Program-made: the position numbers and the translations under genes
The notes under the pieces: generated by a model
Databases searched by the model: none
What the model was told of the DNA's origin: nothing
Seen by the model: only the letters and a program-made list of their open reading frames with translations
Shown: positions 11,326-28,928 of the stretch, one piece after another
Layout: every line of letters starts with the position of its first letter
Position numbering within the stretch: the first letter of the stretch is position 1
Assembly: GCA_022813865.1 (NCBI GenBank)
Contig: JALDZX010000011.1
Location: 124,001-188,000, forward strand
Direction: 5' to 3'
DNA: 64,000 bases
From: Xylographa opegraphella
Lineage: Eukaryota

Positions 11326-13819
11326 ATGGCACCAGGTATTGTCTGCTTCTCCAGACCTATGATACTTGTTCTCGTCTTTCTCGTTCTCCTTCATGCTTCC
11401 CCGGCCGTAGCTTTTGGCGCTGGAAACATAGGTATGGTTTCCTCTCAGAGCCCGTCGCTTTCAGCTGGTCTAATATGATATAGCATCGATTGCAAAGATC
11501 GAGGGGGTTAACTGGCGTCATGGAGATATCGAGGACGTTCTCAAGACCATTGCTTTCATCAAGGGCCACAAATGGACGACGATGATGGTCAAGAGGGTCT
11601 ACTTTGGCAATTGGCTTCGGGATTACAGCCAAGCTGTGGATGTCGGCAGTCTCAAAGGCGTGCAAGCTGATACCGTCCGGATTCTCGTTTGGGTGCTTTC
11701 GTTCTTGACCTTCGGATATGCTACTGGAGAGTTCGAGGTCACAGAGGATCGGTTGGGCGTTTACAGACCAGAGGAGCACATTGATAATCCGAAAGACTAT
11801 GCAGATAATGCGGATGCAAGACAATATGATGCCAGGCTGAGGCCGCCAGTGCAGCCGATTGAACTGCAAATTGATCCCCATACGGGTATGAAGAACTACA
11901 TTGCGAATGAGAGTTTGGGAATTGCCACAAGTTCTGGCTATATCAAGCATAGTTTTACACGAAGTATACACTTTGGGAGAGTCTATACCAGTGGGCCACA
12001 TGGAACTAGAGGTCAAGATGCGGACCTTTTTGAAGCGATGAGGTGCCTTGGCCAAGGATTGCACTGTCTGGAGGATTTTGGAGCACATACTAATTATACG
12101 GAATTGACACTGAGAGAGTTGGGCTTCAAAAATGTCTTCACGCACACAGGAACGGCGACGGAGATATACCTACATGGGAAGAGGGTATTCCCACTCGTGA
12201 CAGGTACATTTGGCGCTGTAGATTTCCTACTTTCCGTTCTAGGTGAAGCTCAAGGTAATCACCCATCTTACAAAGTTTTACTATACTTTCGAGGCTGATG
12301 TTATCCAGATCACTTTACGCAATCTGAGGTTGAAGAACTGGACTTGGCCTTGGATCAAGCTCAAATGCAGTCGCAATCTTCTGCGGAGCCGGGTTCGAGA
12401 TCTTTCGGAGAGCCTGCTGGTAGTGCTTCGTATCTTACAGGACTACTAAAACAAGTCCCCGGAGCTGGCTCTCTTTGTCAGCAAGCAGAACAACTGCAAG
12501 AGAGTTCAGAGGCACAGGAACGCTCAATTGAATCAACTGCCCGCTCGACACAGCCGGGATTTTTATTTCAAGGTCCGCCAGGATCCGTTGGAGGTCCGCC
12601 AGGTCCCGGTATTCCAGGCTTGAGTCCTGATTTCGACCCCAAGAAGACCATCGCACAAATATATCCAATCTTAGAGTTCCGCGATAAGGTCGTGAAGCTT
12701 ATAGATGCTACGATTGAGAAAATCCCTGGTCTCGAAGCCCTCGTCGAAAAGATAACCGAAACAGTTACGCTCTTCGTCATGTCGCTGCTCGCGCCATTCA
12801 TTCGACCGATTATCAACGCTGTTTCAAAGCAGCTGAAAGCCGGCAGTACCTCGGTAGTCGACTCATCTGGGAAGCATCAGTACGAACCCTGGACCGACCC
12901 ACACTGTACCGATCCGACCCATTCCCTCCTTTCGAAGGACCACTTTTCCAATATTCTCAACGAACCTGCCGGCAAAGTGGCTGCCACAATCCTCAAATAT
13001 GTAGCTCCGCGAATTCTTTACGCCTGGGAGCATCCTGACATCCCGATCGACGAAGTCCTCAACGACATTATACGTGTCTTTCATCATCCAGCTAATAGAG
13101 ACCCACACTGCGAACTCCACCGCGAAATGTTCTCAGTTGTCGAGAACTGGGCCTCCTCTCAGCCGAACCGAGGCGCTGAACTAAACAACATCCTCAGCTC
13201 CGAGGGCGTCCGCCATGGCAAGAACAACGTCGGCGGCGACGATGATGGGCATCAACACGGAAGTCTACCTTCTATGGGCAAGCTCTTCACTCCAGCATCC
13301 AAGCCCACGCAAGGCGACGGGATGAGCCGCGACACCATCGACCCAAGCTACACCGTCAAGCTGTTCAAAGAATCCTTTCCCGGAACGGAAACAGCCAACG
13401 ACGGCGCGAGCCCTTCACCAGCACCGCCTGGAAGTTATGCCTACGGCCAGCCTTCCTACCAACCGCCTGCATACGGACAGCAATCTTACCCCCCGCAGGC
13501 CCAGCCGTATGGCGCGCCGCCCGTCCAACAGCAACCGTATGGGTCATACAGCAGTCCGGCGCTGCCGCCAGGACAGGAGCAAGCATACGAGCTGTATGGG
13601 AGTGCGGACCTTCCCCACGGACGGTCGTCGGGAATGTACGGTGGCCCACCTCCGCCGCAGAACCAGTACGGTGCCCCTTACGCGCCACCGGGGTATCCGC
13701 CCGAGTCGGACTATGGCTTTGCATCCAACCCGGGGCAGTCGGCCCCGCAAAGGCCATATGGCTATGAGGATCCTGCGCCCGAGCCGGGTCGCGACTACTA
13801 TGGTGGTGGGAGATACTGA
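11326..13819 (+). CDS. het-C: Heterokaryon incompatibility Het-C family protein
   Basis: Signal peptide then AFGAGNIASIAKIEGVNWRHGDIED, RVYFGNWLRDYSQAVDVG, YRPEEHIDNPKDY, LHCLEDFGAHTNY, DPTHSLLSKDHF; G/P/Y/Q-rich tail; introns 11432-11483 and 12255-12308. Confidence 0.95.
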
Positions 13820-14895: not shown

Positions 14896-15689
14896 TCAAA
14901 CAATCCCACCGCCGGGCAGCCGAAACACCAGATGCAGTGTTGCGTTCTATTCCTCAGTCAGCCACACCTTTCCAAGCACAGCACATACGAGTGTCCCCTT
15001 CGGGGGGAAACGTACGTTGGAAACATTGTAGTCCCGCAGCGTCATCACTAGATCCGCTCGTAACCACGCTTTCCACGCCCCCTTCGAATGCAGCTACCTA
15101 CCGCGTCTAGATCTCGCTTCGACAAACTCCTTTCCCGCATACAGTAAGCGGATGTGTTCTGGGCTGACGTCTACTCGCTTGGAAACCATCGCCTTGAAGC
15201 ACTGGATGGTGCAGTCCATAGCCACGTGTTTGAAGTTCAGGGGTCTCCTCCCTGCAATTGCAGGGCTGATGCATACGTTATCGAGGAGATCAGAGGTGGT
15301 GGCCGCGGGCGTGTGATTGGATGGAGGTTGGTCGGAAGCACTGGGAGGCGGAACATTGGGTATAAGGAGGATCACGAAGCCCTGAGTGTATCAGTAAGTA
15401 GCTTCTGGGAGATAGACCGAAGGTGGATCGAACATCCCTGATATCATATGACTGGAGGGTTCGAGTGTCTGGAAACAAGTGAGTCATTGGTTATCGGTGT
15501 ACCTCTGTGTTCCGAAGTTGCAACCTCACCTTCAAGAAACCATGCGCCGAAAAGGAGTCGCTGATCTTTGACAGCGAGTTGACGCTGTTCAAAGCCCATC
15601 TCCTTGAGGCTGGCGACTGTGACGTGCTCGTTCGGAAGCCAAAACGTGCTGCTTTCCCCAGTGGTCTCACGTACAACAACTTGCCACAT
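14896..15689 (-). CDS. Tandem two-domain ubiquitin-like protein (185 aa) ending RLPGG-GIV, 5 exons
   Basis: Exons 15689-15530, 15468-15434, 15381-15102, 15047-15016, 14946-14896 total 558 nt and splice in frame. Ubl1: QRLLFGAWFLEDTRTLQSYDIRDGFVILL; Ubl2: IRLLYAGKEF..MTLRDYNVSNNATLHLVFRLPGG (ubiquitin: [36 protein letters not shown]). Confidence 0.85.
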
Positions 15690-16452
15690 TATGAATATAT
15701 CCTCAAGTGATGCCTGAGATTGGTAAAAGCAGCAAAGCAGCCCAACAACCAGAATGCTTGGCTTGAGAGATGTGCAGAAGTAAAGTCATTTTATCGAGAC
15801 CGGAGGAATAGAATGATCACCTGAGTCATGAGACAAGGAGAAGGATCAAGGTGGTTATGGCTTGGTCGACGCGTTTGCAAAGCCGTGGTTTGAAAGTCTG
15901 CTGGCTCGCTTAAGAATCGTGAAGACTCCAAGCTGCAATACGGCATTGCAGTCCAGCCTATTCTGACCAGAGAATGGTGCACTGTCGGCCTTCTGGGCGG
16001 TTCCAGTCTTCAAGTTGGTATTGGTGGAACCATTGTCGAAGATTGTTTACCACAAACTGCGTCATGTTCTATCACCACGTATAACTATGTGGTGAAGGTG
16101 TCTGCAAAATGTTCGACCACGGACGATGTATTTCTGGTGCTTAAATTACTTGCCATGAGATTGCTATCTTTATCCGCCGGCAGGAAAGCGACGTTGCCGC
16201 GATGCCTCAAAGAATTACGTTAGGATGTTATGGTCACAGAAACGATGAAAGGAATAGAAAAGTTGCAGAATTTGGCAGAACCTGCTAGGAATCAACGCAA
16301 TCCGAACCCGATACTATTTCTGGTTTGATAGCAGTGAGTTTGACTTATCAACGTCGCGAGGGCCATCTTTGTGCCGGATGTGAAGGCGTCTTCCCGATTC
16401 AAATTGTGCTTCAAAGAGCAATGTCCTGAGATAGCTGCATCGGAACGCTACA

Positions 16453-16459
16453 TATAAAA
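16453..16459 (+). promoter_or_regulatory. Putative TATA box in the divergent Ubl/RBR intergenic region
   Basis: TATAAAA about 140 nt upstream of the RBR ATG at 16595. Confidence 0.35.
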
Positions 16460-16594
16460 TTAGTAGAAACCAAGACGAGAACAAGAAACGACTTCTTTAA
16501 GAAATACGCAGAATCGTCCACGTACTATCAAGGTTTATTTTTATTTGCGATACGTGCAACAACAGGTAGCTGTGATAGATTCCGCAACTCGACA

Positions 16595-17573
16595 ATGTCA
16601 ACAATTTTCGGGTCCAATATAAAATTGGAGTGCATTGTTTGTGGTGAGGTGCCCTGCATGGCTATCAAGTCCGCTATAAAGCAGTGCAGGCATGCAAGAA
16701 ATGTTTGTCTATATTGCCTCGCGAAGCTGATTGAGGTCGCTGTAGATAGAGGAGGATGGGATAACCTACGCTGTCCCGATCCCCAATGTCAAATGGGATT
16801 AGCATACGAAGATGTTCGACAAGCGTCCCAACAGTCGACTTTCAATCGGTATGAAATCGAACTTCTCAATAACGCGAAATAATACTGAGACTTATACTGC
16901 CAGATATGACGATTACATGACTCTACGTGCAGCAAGACGCATTCCAAATTTCATGCAGTGCAACAGGCCTATGGGGATCTGTGCTGCGTCACAGATTCAT
17001 GAAGGTGGAGGTACGTCTGACGAAAAAGTACATCAGATAGAGCAGACTCTGCTTATTTCGTGCGTTGAAGCTTCAGACAGACTGCAATGCTGATAGCTGA
17101 AGACGTGAATCCACAGATGAAATGCTATGTTTGCGGCTACTTGAGCTGCTACAGTTGCTCTGCTGCATGGCATGAAGGAAAAACCTGCTCACAGGCACAC
17201 AGTCTTCTTCCTGAAGATCCAGAAAGCGAAGCTTTCAGGCGCAAATTTTGTAAGCGGTGTCCCGGCGCTGGCTGTGGCTTACATGTCAAAAAAGACGGGT
17301 TGTGCCACGAGATGAAGTGTCCGAACGGTAAGATCCATCCAGTGCTTGGAAAATTTTTGCTGAAAGACGATCGAAGTTGCCTGCGGGGTTTTGTGGTGCT
17401 GGGAATGCAAACTCATTATGGATACAGGTGTGGTATACGAGAAACGAAACAATGATCAGCATTTAATAACATGCAACGCCCCACGAGTTCGCTCAAGCCG
17501 AGACACGGCTTGTGGAACTTCCACATGCGTGGCGAAGCCTCCAGCCAGCGACGGAAGTTATAGAAACGGTTGA
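16595..17573 (+). CDS. Compact RBR (RING1-IBR-RING2) E3 ubiquitin ligase, about 260 aa, 4 exons
   Basis: Introns 16849-16903, 17011-17102, 17328-17376 splice in frame (783 nt). RING1 CIVC..CRH..CLYC..CPDPQC; IBR C..C..CYVC..CYSC..WHEGKTC; RING2 KRCPGAGC..KKDGLCHEMKC..C..WCWEC with Cys at the catalytic position. Confidence 0.85.
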
Positions 17574-18273
17574 GATGAAGATGAAGGATTCGTGGGTGCA
17601 GGTGAAGAATATTAGCATGACCGCAAAGGAATTGGACTTGCAGCCTGGATCCCATCGACAACGAAAGAGGTTTAGGACGAATTTGTCGAAACGCTGCAGG
17701 GCAAAGGGTAGACTACCTTAGGTACTCTCATACTGCTTCATGCCAGTCCCATCAACATACTTACCATATCAATCCGGCAGCTGTTAACGCTCTGGGCCGT
17801 AACATTTTCTGTCATAAGGCAATAAAGACCAAGCGACTTCTTGAGTTATAAAGCAAGCAATGATCTGTACTGACTACTGAAATCAGAATCGAACGAAGTA
17901 AGAGACAATTTCGTAGTGCAGTGGATGTTTGATCAATCGGTTTTGTATAGCACAAGTTTCACGTAGAGCACAATATGAGTGAGACAGCCCATCAGTGTAA
18001 CCACTCCATGGTTCTAATGATCAATTTCTGGCCCGCAGACGACCGATCAGAACAACATAGATCAGTCTTCTCTCGACCGTGGTTGAAGGAGCAACAATCA
18101 GCGTTCAAAGCGCAGGAGATGAGGTCTTCGCATGGTGACTCAGCAGACGAGACCAGCGAATCGCTTTCGTCATGCTGCCCAACCGCGTGCTCCATTCATG
18201 TTGAGACGTCCACCTCTTCAGTGACCAGGCTTCTCTCCTTCGTGTCGAACATCTGTGATGATGATCGCGCAGA

Positions 18274-26247: not shown

Positions 26248-28928
26248 TCAATACCGGCGTGGAATACGCGGTAGGAAACCTGGATCCTCCGGGGTCGTCT
26301 GGTTTTGCGCCAGAGGCGGCGCCATCATCATCGGGTCCAGCCAGCCTGTATATGGCTGGCCAAAATTGCCAGCATAGGGCTCGGCTGCTGGTGCGGGCAG
26401 ATAACCATAGCCGTTAGTGGCCTCGTTCACCATACCGAAATCATTATACGGCCTCAAGGGATCGAACTCGATGGGTGCAGCCCCGGCCGCGGCGCCATAC
26501 CTGTTGAGCTGTGGTGTTCCAAATTCAGGGGTTTCGAGGTTGATGAACTCTTCGAACTCGTCCTGAACGCCGGGATTGTTCCATTGTGCTTCAGTGTGCG
26601 GCCTCCGAGCCTGACGGTGAGCAGCAGTTGTGGGGACTGCAGCCAGTTCTGGAAAATGATAGGGATTCTGTGGGAGCCGATGATTCAACGGTTGGTTGGG
26701 AGGCTGGGCGAGAAGGTCGAACTCGGGTCGAAATATAGGGTCCAAATCCATCAACCTGTTATTGATGGGTCGCTGAACAGCAACAGCGTGAGCAGCCTCA
26801 TTAGCAGGGCGTACCGTAAGATTGGTGTTGGCAACCTGTTGAATTCTCCGCAACTGAACCTCACGAAGTCGCATCTGAGCGCGTAGTTGAGCTGGCGGAT
26901 TCACTGGTGGAAGATAGGGCATTCCCGCATAGAACGGAGGTACAACGGCTGCACTATTTCCATCGTTGGACACCTCAGCCGAGAATTTGATCTTCAGATC
27001 TTCTTCCGAAAGCTCAGGGTTCTCTGCTCTAACTTTTGCCATCGCTTCTCGCTCGGCTTCTGCAATTCTCTCTGCATTCCGAGCGATAGTGTTGTCTTGT
27101 GTAGGACATTTCCGCTTTCCTGACGGGTTTGAGCCAGTCCCGTTGTCGAAATGTCCGTAGCTTTCTTTGGAGATATCTTTTCCACAATAATCACACACAT
27201 ATGTTCTGCATTTGGTGCAGACCATCTTGTTGCATCCGCCATCCTTGAAAATCGGAACTCCACATTTGGGGCATGTTCGAATAATGGCATTTGTCATAGC
27301 CTCCTCCAGAACGTGACGTTCCGATACACCTTGCTCCTTTTTATACTCCAGACAAGTCAGTGGTAAATGAGAATCAGCTTTGCAAAGTCGACAGCTGACT
27401 CGCTCACAATCCGGCATCCTGCATCGAAACTCCTTATTTTCCGCCACAGGGGGATAAATTGCAGCATAATCGCAGAAGGGGCAAGATTCCAGATTCTCCA
27501 AACCTGCTGTCCGCAGTTCCGATTGTTGCTGAAGGCGATCGAGAACTTCAAGGAGCTTCGCATCAAGGAATCTATGCTTTTCTGCCATCGTGAACTCGGC
27601 TTTGCATCCGCTACTGTCGATACACTTGATCTCGTATCGCGAAAGCTCAACTTGACTCTTTGCGTTCCGTTGCGCACAGTCCAGACAGAAAAAGTGAAAG
27701 TTATTACATTGTGTTGACTTCGGTATCGGTACGTCTGAGAAACAACATTGACACTCCACCATTTCTCCGTTCTCTATACACGTCTTCTCAAGCGCAGCAT
27801 CCGCTTCTGCGATCATTTGCTCCCTCTTGAGTTTGTCTTCGAAATAGTCAGTACTCTAGATAGTACATATGAAATCATCTTGAAGTTGCGATAAGGAGTC
27901 ACAAGGAGTATTCAACCAGCAAAAGTGCGACTCACCGGCCTCTTTCTGTCGCTTTCGCTTTGCAGCTTGAAGCTCTTTCCGCAGCGCTTCCGTACTATAT
28001 CCGGTCGGCTCCGTGGAGGACATAAAGTCTCTCTCTGTATGTTTGATTTTCCGCAATTTCTGGAGTTTTCTGTAGGGTGGAAGGGGTGCTTGGTCGTACG
28101 TTCTGTCGGCATACTCAATGGCAAGGTAGGCGGGGTATAGGTTTCCACAAGTCTTTAACTGTAGGTCGATAAAAGTGAGTGGAACACTAGCAAACTCCCA
28201 GAGAAGAAGAAGACGCCTGGGCAAGCTGTTAGCGTAGATATTGGAAAGCATCGTGGTTATAAGGAGAATCTGTGAAAGATAAGAAATGCATCCATAATTG
28301 TCACCACGCGGGTGCAATAGTGTATTGATGGGCAACCAGAACAACTGTCCAGTAAGACTTACGCATCTTGGATCTCAGCAGCCGTGATTCTAGGTCTGCT
28401 TAGCCGAGTGTAGTTCTTTTCCTCTTCCTCGCTGTCGGAGCCTTCGGCACGTTTCCGCTTCAGCTTCTTCTTCTTTTCCTTCTCGGTAGGGTACTTCTCC
28501 GCGTCCAGTATTTGCACAATCACTGCCTGCGATAGCTCCTCATTCACGAGCTGGGATCTTTCTACAGGAAAAGCTGCTGCCTGGCCATCATAGAGTGTCC
28601 GCAGATAATCGCGGCACACGTCCGGGAAGACCTCGAGAACCTTATCCAGATATAGCTGATACAGGACTTCTGGATTCGTAATAAGCACCGGTTGATACGC
28701 AGCTTCGGACGCAGCTTCGGTCGCAGTGCGAAGGGGCAGCGCTGTTTGCTCCACATCGCCATTCTCATGACTGGGGTAGTCAGGAATGTCCGGGAACGCC
28801 TGGTCGATGGTTTCCAGATCGAAGAAGGCGGCAAAAGGATTTGATCTATTAAACGTATCGCTGTCTGTATCGCTGTCTATCTCGATCACTTCTCGGGGGA
28901 CAATGGTGGGCGGTGCATTGGTGTTCAT
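26248..28928 (-). CDS. RBR E3 ubiquitin ligase, RNF216/TRIAD3-like, 3 exons
   Basis: UBA-like VLEVFPDVCRDYL; RING1 CQCC..CNNFHFFCLDC; IBR CPFCDY..CRLC..HLPLTC; RING2 CPKC..KDGGCNKMVC; introns 28362-28217 and 27935-27837. Confidence 0.88.

Follow-up and report, generated by a model that had tools for sequence, protein, structure and literature searches.

Does a lichen-forming fungus possess a protein modifier built of two joined ubiquitin-like (Ubl) domains, and is the ligase gene that lies beside the gene for this protein devoted to its attachment? These questions are raised by a 64,000-nucleotide (nt) stretch of the Xylographa opegraphella genome (assembly GCA_022813865.1, contig JALDZX010000011.1, positions 124,001 to 188,000 of the forward strand), hereafter called the window. 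In it, a small gene for a tandem Ubl protein (di-Ubl; minus strand, 14896-15689) lies head-to-head with a gene for a RING1-IBR-RING2 (RBR) type ubiquitin ligase (plus strand, 16595-17573). The initial annotation of this locus presented the two genes as an ISG15/FAT10-like conjugation module with a dedicated E3 ligase. Its coordinates and its description of both genes proved correct on re-reading of the sequence, and both genes are very probably real, with the exon structures given below. Our analysis of sequences suggests that the di-Ubl protein is a processed, conjugatable modifier precursor, i.e. a candidate fungal tandem-Ubl tag convergent with ISG15 and FAT10, a reading to which we assign a probability of about 0.55. 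To our knowledge, there is no tandem-Ubl tag among the textbook Ubl modifiers of fungi (ubiquitin, Rub1/NEDD8, SUMO, Urm1, Atg8, Atg12 and Hub1).

The exons of the di-Ubl gene and the region that separates it from the RBR gene are listed below (Ubl1 and Ubl2 denote the N-terminal and C-terminal domains, P0001 the public model of this gene, and L011 a metagenome contig with the genomic copy of a relative):

15530..15689, minus strand: di-Ubl exon 1; ATG at 15689-15687, initial 53 codons plus 1 nt of Ubl1; also in P0001
15434..15468, minus strand: di-Ubl exon 2; 35 nt, DTRTLQSYDIRD; also in P0001; 35 nt in L011 too
15102..15381, minus strand: di-Ubl exon 3; end of Ubl1, Pro/Ser/Thr linker and most of Ubl2
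15016..15047, minus strand: di-Ubl exon 4; 32 nt, VMTLRDYNVSN; absent from the public model; 32 nt in the L011 counterpart
14896..14946, minus strand: di-Ubl exon 5; 51 nt, NATLHLVFRLPGG, tail GIV, TGA stop at 14898-14896; absent from the public model; 51 nt in the L011 counterpart
15690..16594, no strand: divergent intergenic region of 905 base pairs (bp) from ATG to ATG; might act as a shared promoter

The coding sequence amounts to 558 nt and yields a protein of 185 amino acids (aa) that ends with LHLVFRLPGGGIV. All four introns (61, 52, 54 and 69 nt, in the order of transcription) begin with GT and end with AG, and the donors GTGAGG, GTAGGT and GTACGT look ordinary. Homology argues that the window gene is spliced in this way. 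The model of five small exons was reproduced, and three full-length relatives, namely P0006 (183 aa) and P0085 and P0086, which were found starting from P0006, align through all of its junctions; junctions 1, 2 and 4 are free of indels, while junction 3 lies next to a loop whose length varies. When these three proteins were compared with the window by tblastn, exon 1 was matched with 43-55% identity over 53 aa (E-values (E) of 4e-9 to 6e-12), and exons 3-5 were covered by a single gapped alignment with each query (E 2e-21 to 2e-20), in which introns 3 and 4 appear as gaps; each of these two introns contains an in-frame stop. The genomic copy in L011 possesses four introns at the positions and in the phases (1, 0, 1, 0) of the window gene, and its exons 2, 4 and 5 (35, 32 and 51 nt) are identical in size to those of the window. 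One further relative is represented in a 90% cluster both by P0090, which lacks introns 3 and 4 and ends with ..MVFRLPGG followed by 16 aa, and by P0087 and P0091, which read into intron 3; the simplest reading, subject to the type of library, is that a spliced transcript stands here next to genomic DNA.

The window's own public model is P0001, a 160-aa hypothetical protein of Xylographa opegraphella, which is 100% identical over exon 3. It contains exons 1-3 exactly as spliced in the five-exon model, then runs into intron 3 and ends with ..RRGR. We rejected this model, as it cuts Ubl2 before the last strand and ignores the in-frame exons for ..TLHLVFRLPGG; judging by the alignments, the public model is truncated and the one with five exons is correct.

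Similar faults are seen in other public models of the family. Six of seven (P0001, P0038, P0015, P0022, P0087 and P0091, with the exception of P0047) lack the genuine C-terminus, departing from it at or close to the position of intron 3: P0022 ends short, while the other five continue into unrelated residues. P0047 reads through intron 1. Since the terminal exons of 32 and 51 nt are missed by public models, the Gly-Gly (GG) end, and with it the family, is hidden in current annotations.

The main ground for considering the di-Ubl protein a modifier is the combination of a conserved GG with a variable tail. The GG-plus-tail end, pointed out in the initial annotation for the window gene, turned out to be a family trait: L-x-G-G is found at the aligned end of 13 of the 13 family sequences whose 3' end is complete (the window model, P0006, P0092, P0085, P0086, P0093, P0094, P0095, P0090, P0088 (= L002), the open reading frames (ORFs) of L001 and L003, and the L011 model), several of which are close variants of one another, so that about 8 distinct lineages are represented. 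The variable residue is P in 10 sequences, Y in 2 and L in 1, with the terminal motifs FRLPGG, LSLPGG, MNLPGG, FRLLGG and LRLYGG. In all 13 the motif is followed by a tail of 2-16 residues, with no sequence in common. A GG retained before a short variable tail is the typical look of the precursors of ubiquitin, NEDD8, SUMO and ISG15, and Ubl domains that are not conjugated normally lose their C-terminal GG, as exemplified by the di-Ubl of OASL. Ubl1, on the other hand, has no GG in any of the 6 aligned full-length members, ending with ..GFVIRLL.. (..DIVYRTV.. in P0088); thus, the two halves are not expected to be cut apart.

On this basis the following route can be proposed. The two beta-grasp domains and the disordered Pro/Ser/Thr linker of about 25 residues between them would stay joined, given a Ubl1 without Gly-Gly; a protease of the deubiquitinase type would trim the short, unconserved tail and expose the C-terminal Gly-Gly; and the whole 20-kDa di-Ubl would then be activated by an E1 enzyme and attached to lysines of target proteins. 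Trimming of the tail, E1 activation and attachment to lysine constitute the route taken by the precursors of ISG15, NEDD8 and ubiquitin.

Several observations speak against this proposal. Arg72 of ubiquitin is important for its E1, and the position that corresponds to it is variable in the family (R in 8 of the 13 sequences, S in 4 and N in 1), while position 74 is P, L or Y and not R; because of this combination, no known E1 can be assigned. The GG itself could be a leftover of ubiquitin ancestry. The Pfam scan of all 209 stop-to-stop ORFs of at least 90 aa in the window (20, 80 and 109 ORFs at E 1e-3, 1e-4 and 1e-5, respectively) identified no member of the E1, E2 or deubiquitinase families, although genes composed exclusively of short exons could be missed by such a scan. 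The other five full-length members agree in 31 columns, at 8 of which the window protein differs, and the donor of intron 2 of its gene (GTTCGA) is weak.

How well is the protein itself defined? Exon 3, used as query in the exhaustive representative search, matched 84 proteins at E <= 1e-3, nine of which were inspected individually. Six of the 84 exhibit one or two matched stretches and represent family-type clusters (P0001, P0006, P0015, P0022, P0038 and P0047); the remaining 78 exhibit at least three, and those inspected among them (P0020, P0040 and P0046) are poly-ubiquitin-like. A word-index search of longer proteins, also with exon 3, gave no match. The ubiquitin profile PF00240 matches two stretches each in P0006 (3.4e-29), P0038 (1.6e-23) and P0001, i.e. 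window exons 1-3 (4e-14), while single Ubl exons of the window score below the Pfam cut-off (13.0 and 21.9 bits vs 25.4). The profile check suggested earlier for both genes was thus borne out for the Ubl domains of P0001, and for the IBR domain of the RBR gene (PF01485 on exon 3, see below), and failed for the Ubl exons taken singly. Two divergent ubiquitin folds, as claimed at the outset, are seen also in the AlphaFold2 (AF2) model of P0006, predicted from a six-row alignment: it comprises two beta-grasp units (mean predicted local distance difference test (pLDDT) score 70, predicted template modelling score (pTM) 0.52), with the linker (residues 73-85) and the last six residues (tail, 178-183) at pLDDT < 50. 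The Pro/Ser/Thr-rich linker noticed earlier in the window protein, PNVPPPSASDQPPSNHTPAATTS, is confirmed in the sequence and, judging from this model, is disordered and flexible; the C-terminus of P0006 is likewise predicted to be free and disordered.

Scanning metagenomes with the alignment of the family yielded 60 loci, of which 10 were assessed by reading their ORFs and the other 50 from tblastn tables alone. Five (L001, L002, L003, L004 and L011) were recognized by reading as members of the family, while the others look like common genes for ubiquitin or poly-ubiquitin-like proteins. Sequence divergence within the family is considerable: the two Xylographa sequences share 45% identity over their comparable part, and the identity to the remaining members falls to 33-41% for L001 and to 22-33% for P0088, which depart from the columns invariant in the rest of the family at 5 of 28 and 21 of 44 positions, respectively. 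Taken together, these comparisons point to a small family of rapidly diverging tandem-Ubl proteins that derive from ubiquitin; the members known to date come from lichen-forming Lecanoromycetes and from environmental contigs. Di-Ubl genes in public assemblies include MMC15_006993 of Xylographa vitiligo and KY384_007897 of Bacidia gigantensis. The group of P0088 and L003, which has an acidic linker, perhaps represents a distinct subfamily.

Among the known Ubl proteins, linear (Met1-linked) di-ubiquitin is the nearest to the family both in sequence and in fold. Poly- and di-ubiquitin gave the best matches among sequences from the PDB (di-ubiquitin E 1.7e-15, FAT10 7e-8), and no ISG15 chain was found among the 60 best PDB sequences listed. 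Foldseek likewise placed linear di-ubiquitin first (E 6e-16, 29-30% identity), followed by ISG15 (18-21%), the di-Ubl of OASL (22%) and FAT10 (22%). Common to linear di-ubiquitin and the family are the tandem of ubiquitin folds joined head to tail, the GG at the C-terminus and an additional tail like that of polyubiquitin precursors, and the two are about 32-36% identical in the alignment. The family differs from it by the absence of GG from the first unit (..GFVIRLL..), by the disordered linker of about 25 aa inserted between the units, by the ending L-P/L/Y-G-G instead of LRGG, and by an extra loop after GKEF in Ubl2.

ISG15 consists of two fused Ubl domains that are kept together, its precursor is processed by removal of a tail to expose the GG, and it diverges rapidly between species. 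All of this resembles the di-Ubl family, with its two joined Ubls, GG-plus-tail end and fast divergence. However, the ISG15 motif LRLRGG is present in none of the 13 family sequences, the hinge of ISG15 is short compared to the long disordered linker, and the family is closer in sequence to ubiquitin than to ISG15. FAT10 is translated with a free GG end, which needs no processing; it is also a tandem Ubl modifier and shows weak sequence similarity to the family (the above-mentioned E of 7e-8), but its free end contrasts with the tails of 2-16 aa that all 13 family sequences carry. Orthology with ISG15 or FAT10 was therefore rejected: di-ubiquitin is nearest by sequence and by fold, LRLRGG is never found, and all 13 sequences are tailed. 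As far as sequence and fold comparisons tell, the origin of the di-Ubl protein is independent of ISG15, and the protein is a ubiquitin derivative with the ISG15/FAT10 architecture. The earlier label 'ISG15/FAT10-like' is hence justified for the architecture, and not for kinship in sequence or fold. ISG15 is described as restricted to vertebrates in the abstract of a review (PMC9722776).

The gene on the opposite side of the intergenic region comprises four exons, and a short stretch that follows its stop codon is also of interest (P0089 is a protein of Trapelia coarctata, a species whose RBR gene is listed as MMC30_001477):

16595..16848, plus strand: RBR exon 1; RING1 ligands C13, C16, C31, H33, C38, C41, C60 and C65 assigned by eye; second half 49% identical to P0089 over 43 aa
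16904..17010, plus strand: RBR exon 2; start of the IBR; aligns with P0089
17103..17327, plus strand: RBR exon 3; rest of the IBR and first half of RING2, catalytic Cys in GLCHEMKC
17377..17573, plus strand: RBR exon 4; end of RING2, WCWEC, 55-aa tail, TGA stop at 17571-17573; no Pfam family
17574..17615, plus strand: stretch after the RBR stop; 13 in-frame codons, DEDEGFVGAGEEY, followed by a stop; 9 of 13 match the C-terminus of P0089

Splicing of these exons (introns of 55, 92 and 49 nt) gives a protein of 260 aa, composed of 12 residues, a RING1-like pattern, the IBR, RING2 with KKDGLCHEMKC..WCWEC, and a 55-aa tail. The IBR profile PF01485 matches exon 3 with 31.4 bits (cut-off 24.3), the ORF 17069-17452 with 34.6 bits and P0089 with 57.8 bits. 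P0089 is the single database match of the RBR protein; the alignment with it passes through all three junctions, with 128 of 214 residues identical (60%), and is strongest in exon 3 (about 77-78% identity over 74 aa, tblastn E 8e-41). In RING1, a C3HC4 pattern can be read by eye, in which His and Cys are spaced unusually, by x4 where x2-3 is the norm. None of the Pfam RING models gives a match here (the best is Sina_RING, E 0.98), and the public model of P0089 begins within RING1 and thus does not bear on the pattern. The closest relatives of known structure, identified via P0089, are parkin (E 4e-5, 26.7 bits) and ARIH1 (E 2.5e-4, 24.1 bits), both with marginal scores. They share with the window protein the RING1-IBR-RING2 order, and their IBR and RING2 active-site motif can be aligned with it (GLCHEMKC in the window, GACHEMHC in P0089, GGCMHMKC in parkin and GGCNHMVC in ARIH1); the Cys of this RING2 motif is known to be the catalytic, thioester-forming one. 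ARIH1 has reportedly been seen to attach ISG15 to substrates. In contrast to parkin and ARIH1, the window protein possesses no Ubl, RING0, UBA-like or Ariadne domain. The claim of a minimal RBR with a catalytic Cys thus agrees with the IBR score above the cut-off, with the aligned motif, and with the finding of nothing recognizable on either side of the core, and by its sequence the plus-strand gene is a genuine minimal RING1-IBR-RING2 ligase with an active-site Cys.

One feature detracts from the integrity of this gene: the TGA at 17571-17573 stands where P0089 has Trp. Part of the tail that follows RING2 is shared with Trapelia, and the lost C-terminal motif is a conserved acidic/aromatic one. 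The small RBR protein has, it seems, recently been shortened by its last 13 residues, and the TGA looks like a recent nonsense change, or else a sequencing error or a polymorphism. In addition, the search of the protein collection with RBR exon 3, among proteins of 131-2000 aa, revealed no identical protein.

Is the RBR protein, then, the E3 ligase for the di-Ubl protein? The distance of about 900 bp between the head-to-head genes, measured here as 905 bp, is what the proposal of a dedicated E3 is founded on, and we regard this proposal as unlikely, since it rests on adjacency in one genome. The RBR protein is by default an ordinary ubiquitin E3, and the two genes are probably chance neighbors: the ligase would have substrates of its own, the head-to-head position would be meaningless, and the di-Ubl protein may or may not be a modifier. 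Both genes belong to one biochemical system and share the divergent intergenic region, in which the only ORF of at least 90 aa (15894-16220, 109 aa) has no Pfam match; moreover, by a rough estimate of ~10-20 RBR genes among ~9,000, a pre-chosen gene would acquire an RBR neighbor by chance with a probability well below 1%. The pair, however, was selected by eye during a scan, and its linkage was seen a single time, so that the adjacency counts as one observation. RBR genes are also not rare here, as another one lies 9 kb away in the same window:

26251-27855, minus strand: second RBR-type gene; ORF of 535 aa with IBR matches and the CPKCGVPIFKDGGCNKMVC motif

We have the impression that its product is RNF216-like; with 28% identity to the small RBR over 95 aa, it is not a recent duplicate.

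Chance is favored also by the breadth of the ligase family. The Atlas contains clusters of small IBR-only proteins with 97 and 63 members, Ascomycota being the commonest phylum among the recorded members. As a lead only, these clusters fit a broad family of minimal RBR proteins better than one tied to the far narrower di-Ubl family (6 family-type clusters among the 84 matches). The RBR protein is better conserved (60% to Trapelia) than the di-Ubl protein (45% between the Xylographa sequences). Comparison with other loci adds little in either direction: tblastn identified no RBR gene in any of the 60 metagenome loci, where the loci of the family (L001, L002, L003, L004 and L011) include at most ~250 nt of 5' flank; the het-C and major facilitator superfamily (MFS) transporter genes of the window are likewise unmatched in all 60; and L001 and L011 show no translated match to the window outside the di-Ubl gene. 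Literature searches returned nothing on a fungal tandem-Ubl modifier or on a Ubl-RBR gene pair, which is not proof of absence in print; on the species itself they gave two taxonomic papers. The boldest version of the proposal appears improbable at present, namely that lichen-forming fungi independently evolved an ISG15-style tag, in which a non-cleavable derivative of di-ubiquitin would mature at a conserved L-P-G-G site and be attached to its targets by a dedicated head-to-head minimal RBR ligase, perhaps in the service of stress, symbiosis or antiviral control.

Or perhaps the di-Ubl protein is a regulator that is never conjugated, either a trans-acting allosteric partner of the RBR ligase or a binder of the proteasome or of adaptors, with a GG that plays no role? 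The closest solved relatives of the ligase, parkin and ARIH1, bring this possibility to mind, because parkin carries a regulatory Ubl domain of its own, and the adjacent, divergent arrangement of the two genes would suit it. The Ubl domains of parkin and HOIL-1 act in cis. However, unconjugated Ubls usually lose their GG, while here it is retained in 13 of 13 sequences in spite of variation in the neighboring residues and tails, and the C-terminus is free and disordered in the AF2 prediction. We consider such a regulator rather unlikely, and prefer the interpretation of the di-Ubl protein as a modifier precursor.

It is very unlikely that both genes are lineage-specific duplicates on their way to becoming pseudogenes in this species: such decay would agree with the TGA in place of the Trapelia Trp (9 of the 13 following codons still match, which suggests a recent nonsense change), with the failure to find an identical protein for RBR exon 3, with the 8 of 31 altered columns and the weak intron 2 donor of the di-Ubl gene, and with the location of both genes in a trough of guanine-plus-cytosine (GC) content (0.42-0.50, vs mostly 0.53-0.70 in the flanks), but all five di-Ubl and four RBR exons are open and in frame, every intron is of the GT..AG type, all Cys/His ligands of the RBR protein that could be placed and its catalytic Cys are intact, the loss is limited to the last 13 residues, and departures from otherwise invariant columns are exhibited also by L001 and P0088.

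The surroundings of the pair consist of housekeeping genes, encoding LYC1-like, Dcc1, Bud3, het-C, MFS transporter, importin-9-like, MoeA/gephyrin-like, Pop5, Tom20, Exo84, SUR7 and GPN-type ATP_bind_1 proteins. One of them is:

11474-13819, plus strand: het-C orthologue (heterokaryon incompatibility, PF07217); faces the di-Ubl gene in convergent orientation, ~1.08 kb from the stop of the latter

The Pfam match of het-C crosses an in-frame stop at 12296-12298, for which a short intron is the simplest reading. GC skew is strongly positive in the segment 14200-14800, between het-C and the 3' end of the di-Ubl gene (plus strand, +0.39 to +0.50). The GC trough mentioned above extends over 15400-18200.

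The metagenome scan also brought to light ubiquitin-like oddities. The proteins encoded at L047 7936-10857, L049 422-2833 and L050 6876-9656 are unrelated to the locus considered here; they are ~800-970 aa long and combine a signal-peptide-like start, followed directly by one ubiquitin-like domain, with long beta-rich regions, an odd fusion of a Ubl domain with a secreted protein. The ORF of ~1,270 aa at L008 130-3942 has a coiled-coil-like N-terminus and about a dozen degenerate ubiquitin repeats, many of them without GG.

What would the di-Ubl gene mean for the biology of these fungi? If the link to the ligase fails, it would modestly extend the long list of divergent eukaryotic genes derived from ubiquitin. 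If the proposal is true, a lineage-restricted, fast-evolving fungal di-Ubl protein with a strict Gly-Gly would represent an independent reinvention of the ISG15/FAT10 design, and would offer a tractable case for studying how new modifiers recruit their E1, E2 and E3 enzymes.

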